A model generated the notes under the pieces. The model had not been told where the DNA came from and did not search any database. It worked only from the letters and a program-made list of their open reading frames with translations. Below are positions 19,801 to 34,800 of a stretch of DNA of 41,964 bases, in pieces (position 1 is the first letter of the stretch; the number at the start of each line of letters is the position of its first letter). This DNA is from Lama guanicoe (taxonomy: Eukaryota): positions 190,030 through 231,993 of the forward strand of contig MU053911.1 of the NCBI GenBank assembly GCA_013239625.1, read 5' to 3'. The position numbers were made by a program, and so were the translations under genes.

Positions 19801-22800
19801 TTTATATGATAGGTTATTATATTTATAATATGTATAACAATAGTGCAAAAATGGGGAAGAAGGACTACTACTATATAAAGGTAGCATTTCTGTACCTCAC
19901 TGGAATTACTGGAATTTAATTATAAGTCTGAAGTAAATTCTTTTTTCAATTGAGAAAAAATTGACATAGAGCATTGTATATTTAAAATTTACAACATGTC
20001 AATTTGATACATTTGTATATTGCAACATGATTACTGCCCTAGTTTTAGCTAACACCTCCATCATGTCATATAACTATTTCTTTTTTGTGGTCAGAACATT
20101 GTCTAGTGTCTTCTAAAATTGTGGTGATGGTTATAGAACTTTGAATATATTTTTTAAAGCATTAAAATGAACAATTTAAATGGGCACATTATATGATTTG
20201 TCATATAGTTTTTAAAAACTACCTGTGTGTCCAGCAAGACTCTCATTCAGACTTGATGGAGAAATCAAAAGCTTCACAGATAAACAAAAGCTGAAAGATT
20301 TTAGCACCACCAAACCAGCTTTGCAGCACATGTTAAAGGACCTTCTCTAGGCATCAAACCGTAAGAAAAGAGAACAAAAAGAAGAGGAAAAACAGAAAAA
20401 GACTTACAAAAGATTGCTTTGGCAGTCCAGGGTCTTTTATGGTCCCATATTAATTTTGGAATTGTTTTAGTTTTGTGAAAAATGTTGTGAGTATTTTGAG
20501 AGAGGCTGCATTGGATCTGTAAAGTGTTTTGGGGAGTACAGCCATGTTGATAATGTTGATGCTTCCAATCCAAGAGCACAAGGTATCTTTCCATTCTTTG
20601 TATCATCTTCAGTTTCCTTCGTCAATGTTTTACAGTTTTCCAAGTATAGGTAACCTCCTCGGTTAAGTTTATTTCTATGTATTTTGTTGTTTTTTTATGC
20701 AATGGAAATGTTTATGCCAGTTATAAAATTCTGGTTTTGAAGTGAAAAAAAGAGTGAATGAAGGGCTGCAAATGGCAAAACATCCTTTCTCAGGGGTGCG
20801 CTGTGCTCCACTGCATGTATGTGCTGCACCTTCTTTGTCTGTTCGTCTGTCGGGGTGCACTTGGGACACTTACGTGTCTTCACAGTTGTGAATAATGTTG
20901 CTGTTAATAGCATGGTGTGTGTATCTTTTTTAAATAATTCTTATTTTGTGGTTGGCTTTATTCCTCTGATAACTATGTAAGATTAAAAAGCTAAAGCTCT
21001 AAATGTTCTTAGAAACAGTGAACAGTACATATATGTAAATTTAAAAATATATGCAGTATATTGTGTATATGTATTTACATGCAATATATTGTGTATGTGC
21101 AAACAGTAATAATCCTACCTAATAAAACTGAAAAATGAAAAGAAAAAGAAAAAAAACTGGCTCAGTGAACACCAACAAGAATAGGCTAAAAAAAATCTGA
21201 GAAATGGGAGGATATGGTGATGGAGAAAACTGCGACTTTTACTAGAATATAAATTCAAAAACTATTATAAATTATAAAAACTTCCAGCACATACGTTTTA
21301 ATTCCTAGTACCTGACCTGACCTTGCTTACTTGAGGATTCTTTGCTTCCTTACTTCAGATGAACAAGTCCTCCGCACGACAGTAGCTGGAGAAAGAACCA
21401 GAAGCTAACTTTCCCTAGCTTTATTTTGCTGTGGATCTTAACCCTTTCACAGTGTGTTACTTGATTGTTGAAAACGTGCTCTGCCTCCTCTGAGCCCCTC
21501 TGTTCGTTCTCTTGACGCTGCTGTAGCAGCAGCTGCTTGGTGCAGGCTGCACGGCCTCTCATCCGCCTGGCCCAGCCACTCTCCCAGGACAGACTTCCAT
21601 CTGGTGTCTTGATGGTGACAGGTTTCTAACTTCAGGTACTAGCTCTGCTAGAACCAAATTCACCACAACTTTCAGACCCAGTAGTTGATCATTCCTAATT
21701 ACTTCTTTTTTAGTATAAACTCTCCTTTAATAATGTGCATGTATTTTTCCTGTAATTGGACCTAGTTGCAGTTTTCAAATTTAAAATCACATAAAAACTC
21801 AAATGGAAGGAGACCCAATCTCAGTCCTGGTACTTGTACAGATGTAAGCATTTCCTCCTCCCAAGCTACAGGGTCTTCAAGCCTCAGGGACCTGGGAGAG
21901 CACTCTTCTCTCAGTCTGCAAAACGTCCTGTTACTATTTTCCATCACTGATGCCCACTTTGTTTACAATTAAGTAACAGAAGGGCATTAAAATATTCCTG
22001 GATGAGTCCAAGAATTTCTTCTCTGTGGTGACAGTGCAGACCATGGTTTGCAACGTAACTTGTGAGAAAAAAATTTTATGTTCCACATCAGTGGATATGT
22101 GCCCCTACAGTATGATTATGACTCTAATGGAAACTTAAAAGTTATGTTATTATCATAAACTCTTCAGGGTAAAGAATTATAAGCTGTAAGGTTATACAGC
22201 AAGTTTGTCATTGTCTGGATACACAGTCTCCGTCAAATCATCAGCGTCTCAAAGCGTCAGTGGTTTGGAGGCTTAACAAGGCTCACAGCCCTTCCAGTTC
22301 TCAGGCTTGGTGACTGCAGCCCAAACGTCGCATCGTGCTCCCCACTCGTTAGTGAGATGGCTAACGAACATCTTGCTACACACACACATGCGCGCACGTG
22401 CACACGCACAGTCACGTTAGGATCACTTTATAAAGTGTTTTGATATTTATTTCTGTAGAAACTGACCTAGAACGTTTGAAAGATACTGTTGGAAGACGCC
22501 TATTAGCGGGGGAAGTGAAGATAGAACCAAAGAGCCTCCCTGGTAAGAACAAGAGTTGTGTAAGTCTAATCTTTGTGGTTTATTTACCTTCTTTGGAGTT
22601 TAATTATGAATTTTTAATGACAGGTGTACCCATGTGTTGTTGTTATATAGGTAAAATCTTTGTGAATATCCTGATAATTGGTTGTACTGTGGTATTTATT
22701 AGAAATTTAAAAATTAGCTAGGTATTATGAGTTTTAGAAATCATCTATTTAGAAATTAAGTTATAAAATTAATGTTACAGGGACCTCAGAATATACTTGA

Positions 22801-31800: not shown

Positions 31801-34800
31801 ATTATGAGGCATCAGTTATGGACCAGTGTGTCATTACCTGGATCCGTGGCCTTGGTCACCTCACTACACATCTCTGAGCCTCAATGCAATGAAGCGTGTA
31901 TGATGTCTTACTGGCTCTTTCTGTTTTAAAGCCTTTTGATTTTGCAGGTCAGACATTACATTAGAACTCTTCTTGTGTAATGAAATAATGCTGATTAAAG
32001 GAGCATTGCACACACAGAACCTCACACAACAAGTCAGTATTTACCTTGCAAAGTGTTTTGAAATTGTTTGTTTCTGTAGAGACCGATACAGAGCGCTTCC
32101 CAGGTGCTGTCGGAAAAGGTCTACGAAAGGGTGAAGTCAAGACGCAGTCCAAGAGTCATCTTGGTAAGAACAAAGACACTGCAAGTATCTTTCTGGTTTG
32201 TTTATCTTCTCTAGAGTTTCTTAAAGTCTGAGTCTTCAATGGTTACAGCACCTGTGTGGTGGTATTACACGGTACACTGTCGTCCTAAATTCCCTGCTGT
32301 GATCAGTGGAGCTCCAGCAGTTACCATCAATGGGAGATTAACTACAGGGCGTACGTTTCAGGACTCCTTCATTTAAAACATGAGCCTCAGACATTCAGTG
32401 CCGTGGTGAGGTTGGAATGTGCTTGACGGAAGCATGTCAGATGCGGTTCTAATCACTGTGTTTTCGGGGTAGAGGGATAGCTGCTTTGTATTTGCACAGA
32501 CAGAAAGGCTAGCTTATGAATGAGACTGAAAGAGGGGTTTAGCAGACGGTTCCTTCACTAATTACGAGCTCCCTCTGCACAATTAAAGTATCGGGCACGT
32601 TGCCAGTAGCGCAGGGGAAGTAGACGTCCTCAGTCTTGTCATGTGGTTCACACGCTCCCGCCCCTTGTCCGACGTAACAGTCCGACACACTTCGTCTTGA
32701 TCTTTGGTGTGAAGTGAGAGGAGGCAGAGAGCTTACCAGAAGAACGGGGGAAAGGGACAGTCAGAAGGAAAACAGCTGTCGTCCAGCGCACACGGCGGTG
32801 CCCGCAGAGCAGCGCCGCTAGCTTCTCACCGCCCAGAAGGAGACTCAGTGCGGCAGGCCCTGCGGGAGCCTCGTCACCACGTCGCAGTCAGGCAGCAGCC
32901 AGCCCCCGAGGGGAGGGCGCCCTGCGTGCTGCTTTCCTGCAGGGCGTCCTCTCAGATGCCCGAATTCACCCCCCAAACAGGAGACAGGCAAAGAAGCAGT
33001 GCAGTGCAGACATGTCCTAGGGAGTCCAGGAGAGCAGGCTGGAAAGTAACTTAGGCGGTGGGGGTGGGGTGTCGTGAAGGAGGGTGACTGTGATTCTTTC
33101 TAGATTAGCACGTTTCTTTTTTTTTTTCTCGTCCTTAATTCTGTCTGCTGTGAAATGCTCTTCTTCATGCTTCCTTGCTGATAGAAGCATCTTTGTGTGC
33201 TTATTGCAAAGAGGCCTTCCATTCTCCCCTGTACCAGGTGGAGGGGAACCAGAGCCTCGGTCATACCGCTGATACCTCTCATTGTGCGTCGCCGTAGCTC
33301 ATGTCACTCTCACAAAATATTGTGACGCACTTACTGAAACTTGTTCTTTCCAACTGTAAGTTTTGTGGATCGTTTTGGTGACGATACCCAAGCTGATTCC
33401 CACCTCTTTTTGAATTTTGACGTGTATTTTGGCTCCAGAGTTCATAGTGTAATCTTTTACACCTAGTCCTGGTCTCAGCAGTTACTGGAAAGTAAGAGCC
33501 GCCTAATAGTGCTGGGTTCGGGGTAGGTTTCCAGCCTCTGGTACATGCCCTTCTGTAATCAACATTCTTTACTTATCCCTTTTCAATTTGAATTTTTCTT
33601 TAATAACTTTTGTGTATTTTTCCTCTGATTTGACGTAGTTATTTGTTTCTAAATCCATTGAAATGTTCAAATCACATCATAAAAACTCAAACGGAGTGGG
33701 ATGCAGTCCCAGCGGTGGTGCTACTGCTGATCACATGAACTCCCCAAGACCCTTAACATCGTATGAGAGACAGCATTGTGTATAAGAGCACTGGTTATGG
33801 AATTAATGGGGCATCCACTTGTGCTTAGTTTTTAGTTGTCCTGATACACGTTCTCAATCACATCACAGAACACCTGCAGCTTCAGGGTCATGAGGCTGAC
33901 ATGACGGCTAGCAGCCCTTCCGGTGCTAAGGCTTCTGATTCTGCAGTCCAGATATGCATCATTGTAACTCTTCATCTGCAGTAACGAGTACTAATTAAGC
34001 CAGCACTACGCACACACACAGACAGACAGACGTGTGCACTGATGTCACCTCAGAGAGTGTTTTAAAACCTGTTTTATGTCCTTAGAGACTTTCATAGAAC
34101 ATGTGACAGATACTGTTGGAAGAGGGGCAATGGTTGATGAAATCAAGACACAATTTAAGAACCACCCTGGTAATAACAGGAATTTTTCAAGTTTAACATT
34201 TATGCTCTGTGCTGTCTCTGGGATCTAGTTAACTGCATCGTTAGTGACAGCAGTAACTATATGTTAGTGTTAATGATCAGAAATCTTCATGAATTTCCTC
34301 TTCTATTTAGTTAAACTCTAGTATTTACTATCAATGGAAATTTAGCTAGATATTACTTAGTTCTTAAACTCATCCATTTGGAAAGTAATCCACCAAATCT
34401 AATGCAAAATGACTCTGGAATATTCTTGATTTATATTTCCAGCTGCCATTCTATTCACTGTCTTTGCTGGCTTAGAAAGGAATGTTGCTTTGAATTTGCA
34501 AAAGCGAAAAGGCTAGGTGGTGTGCAGTACAAGAGGGCTGCTTCACTGCTTACCAGTTACCTCTGCATAATTAGGTTGGCAGGTAATGGTGTCTGTATTA
34601 GAGTGGCGTTTTCTATCCGAGCTGCACAATTCACAGTTACCGCATTAGTCCTAATAGTAGCAGTGTAGATACATTTCTGTTAGATGCAGGAAGTACTGTA
34701 GTTATGAACTTTCTGCAGAATTGATGTTGAAAGCTAGAATTTGAAAGTAACTGAATGTTCAGATACAAGCACCCACATGTGTGTTTTCACTGAAATTTAA

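Follow-up and report, generated by a model that had tools for sequence, protein, structure and literature searches.

A tandem array of 84-nucleotide symmetric exon units at the CCDC7 locus of Lama guanicoe

We analysed a stretch of 41,964 nucleotides (nt) of the Lama guanicoe genome (assembly GCA_013239625.1, contig MU053911.1, positions 190,030 to 231,993 of the forward strand; hereafter the window). On its + strand, it holds six paralogous units of 84 nt, E1 to E6, that resemble coding exons of the gene CCDC7. The first unit, E1 (22459..22542; type A), is a phase 1-1 CCDC7 exon whose peptide is identical at 28/28 positions to that of two Camelus models (P0001 and P0004) and one Vicugna model (P0190). 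E2 (24472..24555; type F) is found as unit 2 in the Camelus models P0001, P0186, and P0187, while E3 (26851..26934; type F') is about 89% identical to Camelus unit 3. E4 (28221..28304; type G), whose split codon encodes Gly, shares 93% identity with Camelus unit 4, and E5 (32080..32163), again of type F, corresponds to the final repeat ahead of the exon beginning with GVNLFEDKD in all Camelus models. E6 (34086..34169) belongs to the terminal-unit type, Z; it is an intact exon-like unit of 84 nt with the donor GTAATA and is absent from the camelid protein models found.

Each of the six units is preceded by a pyrimidine tract and AG and followed by GT. The sole open frame of each begins at base 3 (two bases, 27 codons, and one base), which places an intron of phase 1 on both sides, and the codons split by these introns encode E or G, matching the annotated proteins. 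The + strand of the window has exactly five occurrences of GTAAGAACAA, each directly 3' of one of units 1 to 5, and the donor of unit 6 reads GTAATAACAG. An earlier note on this DNA, made from its letters alone, had described six open, phase 1-1 units of 84 nt at these positions, five of them with the same donor. Both descriptions are borne out by the AG/GT bounds, the frames, and the donors, and units 1 to 5 align at 89-100% to Camelus CCDC7 in the phase claimed. That all six are exons is a statement that stands for their intact structure, but just five are exons in any deposited model found. Likewise, the wide divergence attributed to the peptides applies to most pairs (22-63% protein identity) but not to E2 and E5, which are identical over all 84 nt.

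Unit copies were counted with a nucleotide profile (six units and flanks) on the window and 200 kb of flanking sequence, as a search with the protein of a single unit finds just 3/6 units. The profile recovers the six units at E 1e-41 to 1e-53 and reveals no seventh unit in the window, the next match having an E of only 0.7. Nothing at E<=1 was found within 100 kb on each side of the window, with the proviso that runs of N of ~6.3 kb and ~6.1 kb directly adjoin its ends (contig 180030-190029 and 231994-241993) and may hide unit copies. The similarity of the units extends beyond their coding part: ~35 nt of intron ahead of the acceptor are common to them (..AAAGTGTTTTGAAAT..TTTCTGTAG), and homology runs into the flanking introns in pairwise blocks of 170-950 bp with 67-76% identity around the units. 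This intronic homology indicates duplication of DNA rather than convergence. A transposon origin of the unit was rejected, E2 with its flanks matching only local copies in the genome. With equal length, equal phase, and intronic homology, the six units form a tandem exon-duplication array of symmetric phase.

The units are quite probably coding exons that were duplicated in tandem within the 3' half of CCDC7, a testis gene of the BioT2 family. Four proteins matched the open frame that surrounds unit 2; three of them are named CCDC7 (Camelus ferus or C. dromedarius), and the fourth, P0001, is unnamed; models of C. bactrianus and C. dromedarius and one Vicugna pacos model are further members of the cluster. 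Using P0002, P0001, P0004, and P0190 as queries, tblastn gave ordered exon matches across the window and its upstream and downstream flanks, with 77-100% identity. The units and the flanking exons are collinear with Camelus CCDC7 proteins of 1,347, 1,324, and 1,380 aa and with the Vicugna model (81-100% per exon). Most exons of the Vicugna pacos model match at 94-100% and four at 81-88%, and a ..YRSERLG variant is common to both animals; among deposited models, this one is the closest. The BioT2 domain PF15368 is detected on the orthologues P0002 (E 2e-78) and P0100 (E 1e-89), the N-terminal exons of this animal lying further upstream. CCDC7 had been named in the earlier note; the collinear Camelus exons confirm this identification, and 12/12 listed human C10orf68/CCDC7 models have nine such units.

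The Camelus models P0001, P0186, and P0187 contain E1-E2-E3-E4-E5 followed by GVNLFEDKD, P0002 contains E1-E3-E4-E5, and P0003 and P0004 contain E1 and one F unit. E1 to E5 are thus predicted to be used in Camelus. Four RNA sequencing runs contain 0.13-0.22 of the words sampled from positions 31000-40999 of the window, shares that do not amount to evidence for expression. E6, intact but with a weaker donor, is unannotated in camelids and may or may not be used. That it is a dead pseudoexon in camelids, the functional array having five units, seems to us close to an even bet, with the balance very slightly against it. E6 is present in 0/7 camelid models that reach the next exon. A search with its frame among 5.8 billion proteins found none of at least 108 aa sharing three 5-residue words with its peptide, and its donor GTAATA is without the +5 G found in the other five. 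On the other hand, the 28-codon frame of E6 is open, its AG and GT are intact, and it retains the family motif (E..TDTVGR....EIKTQ.K.HP). Models of horse, sea lion, deer, whale, pig, and primates make use of the terminal Z unit. By our own arithmetic, the chance of an open 27-codon frame alone is ~0.27.

Unit inclusion was tallied in 110 models (proteins of 740-2,358 aa) from the 17 non-camelid species with at least two models listed among the best 120 of 206 matches. Every unit is included in 100/110 of these listed models, and all units are kept in 12/12 human, 7/7 Delphinus, 7/7 Orcinus, and 7/7 Gorilla listed models. One or two units from the middle of the array are cleanly missing from the remaining 10/110 (one model of Megaptera, two of Pseudorca, one of Pan, two of Pongo abelii, three of P. 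pygmaeus, and one of Globicephala). In addition, two Macaca models have 9 units rather than 11, and a hybrid unit is seen in one model of Physeter. These ten models, the phase 1-1 symmetry that makes skipping harmless, and the Camelus models with 5, 4, or 2 units would all be compatible with a regulated cassette-exon system, in which the function of the array is to tune isoform length by alternative inclusion. We find this unlikely, since the great majority of the listed models include all units and the models are themselves predictions. Moreover, the Camelus models come from different species and annotation releases, so that their differing counts are no proof of skipping. Among predicted isoforms, unit skipping is therefore possible but the exception, and the label of cassette exons given earlier appears overstated. 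A cluster of mutually exclusive exons was rejected, as models carry 2-11 units at once.

A hidden Markov model of the unit, iterated on 122 proteins, found the array in all 122. Unit numbers, counted in annotated or predicted proteins, are one in Dasypus, Tamandua, and Tupaia, two in Ictidomys, five in Oryctolagus, Equus, Zalophus, Bos, and hippo, six in Odocoileus, seven in Sus, Chinchilla, and 12 cetaceans, eight in Pongo, nine in Homo, Pan, and Gorilla, and 9-11 in Macaca. A fixed 1:1 set of six exons across mammals, which the earlier note had named as the result that would speak against its reading, was thus not what we found, the numbers running from 1 (armadillo, tamandua, and tree shrew) to 11 (macaque). 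The family is narrow, with 34 representatives at E<=0.001 among 1.84 billion, and 10/10 of the clusters looked up, chosen among them, are named placental mammals. Judging from the sequences in which it occurs, the array is old, being present in Xenarthra and Boreoeutheria.

The model of Macaca nemestrina with 11 units (P0062) contains three identical consecutive ones, two other macaque models having 9, and a fragment from Myotis daubentonii (P0147) reads F-G-F-G, with pairs identical at 25/28 and 26/28 positions. Both cases suggest that blocks of one or two exons were amplified in tandem very recently. Some of the counts above come from partial models (Callorhinus 3, Microcebus 4, and Ochotona 4), and, as all are counts in predicted proteins, the species differences could be annotation noise on an ordinary static repeat domain. 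This we regard as very improbable. The 12 cetaceans consistently have seven units, and Homo, Pan, and Gorilla consistently nine, with distinct unit sequences. The identical or near-identical neighbors are lineage-specific (hhh in macaque; FGFG, 25-26/28, in Myotis), and in the window itself the E2 locus is without a Z unit and yet has the flank of one, as described below.

Four unit types, A, F, G, and Z, are recognisable. In a tree of 71 units over 27 columns, from which 31 rows of Gorilla, Pongo, Pseudorca, and Eschrichtius were left out, several orders are represented in each of the groups A, G, and Z. E6 falls within Z (Shimodaira-Hasegawa-like approximate likelihood ratio test, SH-aLRT, 94), and E4 is placed with the G units of horse, sea lion, ruminants, hippo, and whales (SH-aLRT 85-93). 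The remaining F units form lineage-specific clusters. The unit order in the window, A-F-F'-G-F-Z, is that of deer, while horse and sea lion have A-F-G-F-Z and pig and whales A-F-Z-F'-G-F-Z.

The identity of E2 and E5 is part of a near-identical tract of 1,271 bp, of which copy 1 (24344..25614, +) comprises E2 with 128 bp upstream and 1,059 bp downstream of it and copy 2 (31952..33222, +) contains E5. The two copies are 99.84% identical, with two mismatches only, at 24350 and 25611, both at the edges, so that 1,260 internal bases are without a difference; beyond both ends, the homology breaks off abruptly. The upstream edge of copy 1 abuts an interspersed, SINE-like (short interspersed nuclear element) repeat of ~200 bp (24147..24343), delimited by a genome search with 24100-24343. 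This search gave at least 2,563 first-look candidates, and the 40 that were scored have ~80% identity and end at query position 242-244.

On the other side, 21 bases past the downstream edge of copy 1, begins a flank X (25636..26420, +) made of three collinear blocks paralogous to the flank X' that follows E6 (34602..35327, +), with 68-75% identity. No genome copy of its first two blocks (25615-26060) was found beyond the local pair, and a transposon family was rejected as the source of flank X, which occurs in two places in the genome, both local. As flank X is paralogous to the flank after E6, the E2 locus resembles the E5-E6 locus minus 1.38 kb including the Z unit. The near-identical tract extends exactly from one homology break to the other. 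Its distal 0.7 kb (24901-25614 and 32509-33222) has a GC content of 0.55 and 35 CpG inside an otherwise AT-rich intron. A transposon was rejected here too, the GC-rich 635 bp (24980-25614) being found in two places in the genome, both local; this segment may have been left by GC-biased conversion, or it may be a CpG island within the intron.

A similar pattern is seen at the protein level in other lineages. The two F units flanking G are identical at 27/27 positions within the window, within Camelus, and within Zalophus, and at only 17/27 between the window and Zalophus. The two Z units are identical at 27/27 positions in Eschrichtius and Pseudorca, at 26/27 in Sus, and at 18/27 in Megaptera and Physeter, and at 11-13/27 when pig is compared with whales; in Delphinus, a private change (EAD..) is present in both Z units. 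Paralogues of one species are thus closer than orthologues in camelids, sea lion, pig, gray whale, and delphinids. The ungapped identities of Odocoileus unit 2 (3-7/26) are an artefact of a one-residue deletion and were not used.

Both signs of concerted evolution are therefore present, namely paralogues more alike than orthologues in their proteins and a tract of high identity inside an older, diverged paralogy. Together with the amplifications and losses, this suggests that the array evolves by duplication, loss, and gene conversion. The birth-and-death process proposed in the earlier note is supported by the amplifications in macaque and Myotis and by a likely loss in camelids, but homogenisation is at least as visible. 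For E2 and E5, we infer that gene conversion made the two identical. As the same peptide is found at both positions in Camelus and the tract of the window is nearly free of differences, the homogenisation would be either recent or recurrent.

The same identity could arise in assembly, by one locus being placed twice or by two paralogues collapsing to one consensus. An assembly in 55,231 contigs, and a tract with 1,260 internal bases without difference and abrupt edges, would fit such an artefact, which we nevertheless consider distinctly improbable. In the Camelus models P0001, P0186, and P0187, derived from other assemblies, one and the same peptide forms the second and the fifth unit, separated by units 3 and 4, both copies in the window sit in different unique flanks, and identical F units around G also occur in Zalophus. 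A collapse could exaggerate the identity, but it cannot explain two distinct genomic contexts or the Camelus models.

We also compared the conservation of the coding and noncoding parts of the unit. Among paralogues other than the E2/E5 pair, exon identity is 49-76%, that of the 50 nt before the acceptor 44-78%, and that of the first 12 intron bases 67-100%; in the comparison of E2 with E4, for instance, the exons are 49% identical and the upstream 50 nt 78%. Pooled over paralogues, the ratio of nonsynonymous to synonymous differences (pN/pS), a comparison of the dN/dS kind that the earlier note had suggested, is 0.81, a noisy value drawn from 27 saturated codons per pair. Only T1, E4, E18, and K20 are invariant in all six peptides, and the loose motif also holds a central G-R/K-G. 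AlphaFold2, run with a 16-row alignment, gave a mean pLDDT (predicted local distance difference test) of 40, with no residue at or above 70 and one short helix, which, with an alignment of this depth, is weak evidence for disorder. Pfam has no family on the repeat region; a match to ORF11CD3 (E 0.27, under the cut-off of that family) was dismissed. Selection appears to hold the splice signals, the length, the frame, and a loose motif in a segment that is probably disordered, and the repeat may serve as a multivalent linker or an array of short motifs.

These observations can be accommodated in a simple scheme. Each unit is a module of 28 codons between phase-1 introns, and the reading frame is kept whenever a unit is gained, lost, or skipped. 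The duplicated unit carried its own splice signals, namely ~35 nt ahead of the acceptor as well as the donor GTAAGAACAA, and among paralogues these are now conserved as well as or better than the coding sequence. Three processes may then have acted on the array. The first would be tandem amplification, as in macaque and Myotis. The second would be deletion, by which the camelid E2 locus may have lost 1.38 kb with the internal Z unit that is still present in pig, hippo, and whales. The third would be gene conversion, which could have made E2 equal to E5 over the 1.27-kb tract that lies between the SINE and the deletion breakpoint. The proposed sequence of events begins with an old duplication of an [F-Z] block, which pig and whales retain in full; camelids would then have lost the internal Z, and a gene conversion would have followed recently.

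Besides the noise in pN/pS and the limited weight of the low pLDDT, several points count against this account. That E1 to E5 are used is predicted from the gene models of related species. In the unit tree, 30/58 inner branches have support below 80, and no starred clade contains E1, E2, E5, or E6. The comparisons across species are all at the level of protein models, so that identical units elsewhere could partly reflect assembly or annotation. In the window, the identity of the tract could be inflated by collapse in a 2.05-Gb assembly of such fragmentation. Finally, ruminant models are also without the internal Z, so that the loss may be older or the history of duplication different.

A broader proposal is that the array is a recurrent hotspot of intragenic recombination, with independent conversions or re-duplications of F and Z units around G in at least five lineages (camelids, sea lion, pig, gray whale, and delphinids) and a unit number drifting between 1 and 11 across placentals. 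We put this forward tentatively, as an idea that is plausible but somewhat more doubtful than not. If true, the array would offer a compact natural system in which to follow the concerted evolution, birth, and death of exons in a sperm-cell protein that is disordered and evolves fast.

The array explains dozens of predicted CCDC7 isoforms and the widely differing lengths of the protein among mammals, in a repeat region that has no Pfam family and for which we found no paper. It also matters for annotation, as identical units invite assembly collapse and an intact sixth unit is unannotated in camelids. More generally, it is one more clean case in which the phase-1 symmetry of exons allows a disordered region to expand, contract, and become homogenised while its frame stays intact.

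Other exons of CCDC7 lie on both sides of the array. Upstream, tblastn places one at approximately 2860-2973, and an exon of 111 nt and phase 1-1 (9534..9644, +; bounds from AG/GT context) is spliced straight to E1 in some models. An optional exon encoding a PDTAENL peptide repeat (approximately 18692..18820, +) is included in P0002 and P0187 and not in P0001, P0004, or P0186. In the window, it is 14 residues shorter than in Camelus ferus P0002, as seen from a tblastn gap, a second length variation that is internal to an exon. In the Vicugna pacos 'CCDC7-like' model P0190, E1 runs not into E2 but into a short terminal coding piece at 22833-22886, which may be an alternative 3' end or the mark of a truncated model. 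The next exon 3' of the array, GVNLFEDKD..., spans 35589..35711 (+; 123 nt, phase 1-1), and it is followed by exons at 37412..37528 (+; tblastn range), at approximately 38724-38849, and from about 39991 onward (both from tblastn). Decayed interspersed repeats at 17286-17753, 19273-19587, 30271-30483, and 40852-41136 (- strand copy), among others, explain several self-matches of the window; we take their reading frames to be the C-terminus of LINE-1 ORF2.

A second CCDC7 exon array lies upstream of the window, at contig ~156.8-182.4 kb (L010:6802-6882, L011:1671-1781, L011:6280-6396, L012:690-800, L012:3652-3768, L012:8322-8444, and L013:2223-2333). Its units of 111 nt encode 37 aa with the motif PDxNPxLxxQDSVxxxQxxVKKQ, the acceptor context ..ctctttatGTAG, and the donor GTAAGTAT. 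The member L012:3652-3768 is without a GT donor and in no Camelus model, and is probably a dead copy. Isoforms of Delphinus differ by 37 aa, a length equal to that of these units. The two arrays belong to the same gene and are both built of phase-1 symmetric exons with a shared acceptor context and donor, but they differ in unit length and motif, and the second one lies outside the window.

Tandem exon duplications have been catalogued as a class, for instance in surveys such as Exonize (PMC12343006, PMC9013439). The array shares with this class its adjacent homologous exons of equal length and phase and the extension of homology into the introns. Most of the studied cases are mutually exclusive pairs (PMC8373072, PMC9741552), whereas 5-9 units are included together in CCDC7. 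CCDC7 is not named in the Exonize supplement examined, and full-text literature searches gave no description of its exon array among their top-ranked results. The suggestion that the system is under-described is thus correct insofar as no paper on the array was found, but RefSeq-type models of related species routinely include its exons.

Intragenic arrays homogenised by gene conversion or unequal crossover include kringle IV-2 of LPA, the Olduvai repeats of NBPF, and the triplicate region of nebulin. Like these, the CCDC7 array has paralogues closer than orthologues and near-identical exon-intron tracts, but its unit is a single small exon and its tract measures only 1.27 kb. As a tandem array of symmetric exons, it has a known design; the array is real and somewhat dynamic, and it involves no new mechanism.

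The PEVK region of titin is made of repeats of ~28 residues. The short repeated exons of this disordered segment have been duplicated, lost, and differentially spliced among mammals (PMC6469411, PMC9100103). Many short homologous exons encode one repeat each and their number varies among mammals (PMC6469411), features that recur in CCDC7 together with predicted disorder. Isoform length in titin also varies by exon skipping, as would be possible in CCDC7. The two systems differ in composition, since a PEVK exon is called at a ratio of P, E, V, K (and A) of 0.54 or more (PMC6469411) and the CCDC7 consensus, with ~11/27 P/E/V/K, lies below this value. They differ as well in size (about 100 units in titin and 1-11 in CCDC7), in gene and tissue, in that no mechanical role is known for the CCDC7 repeat, and in that skipping is rare in CCDC7 models. 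Titin PEVK is the closest well-studied parallel to the CCDC7 array.

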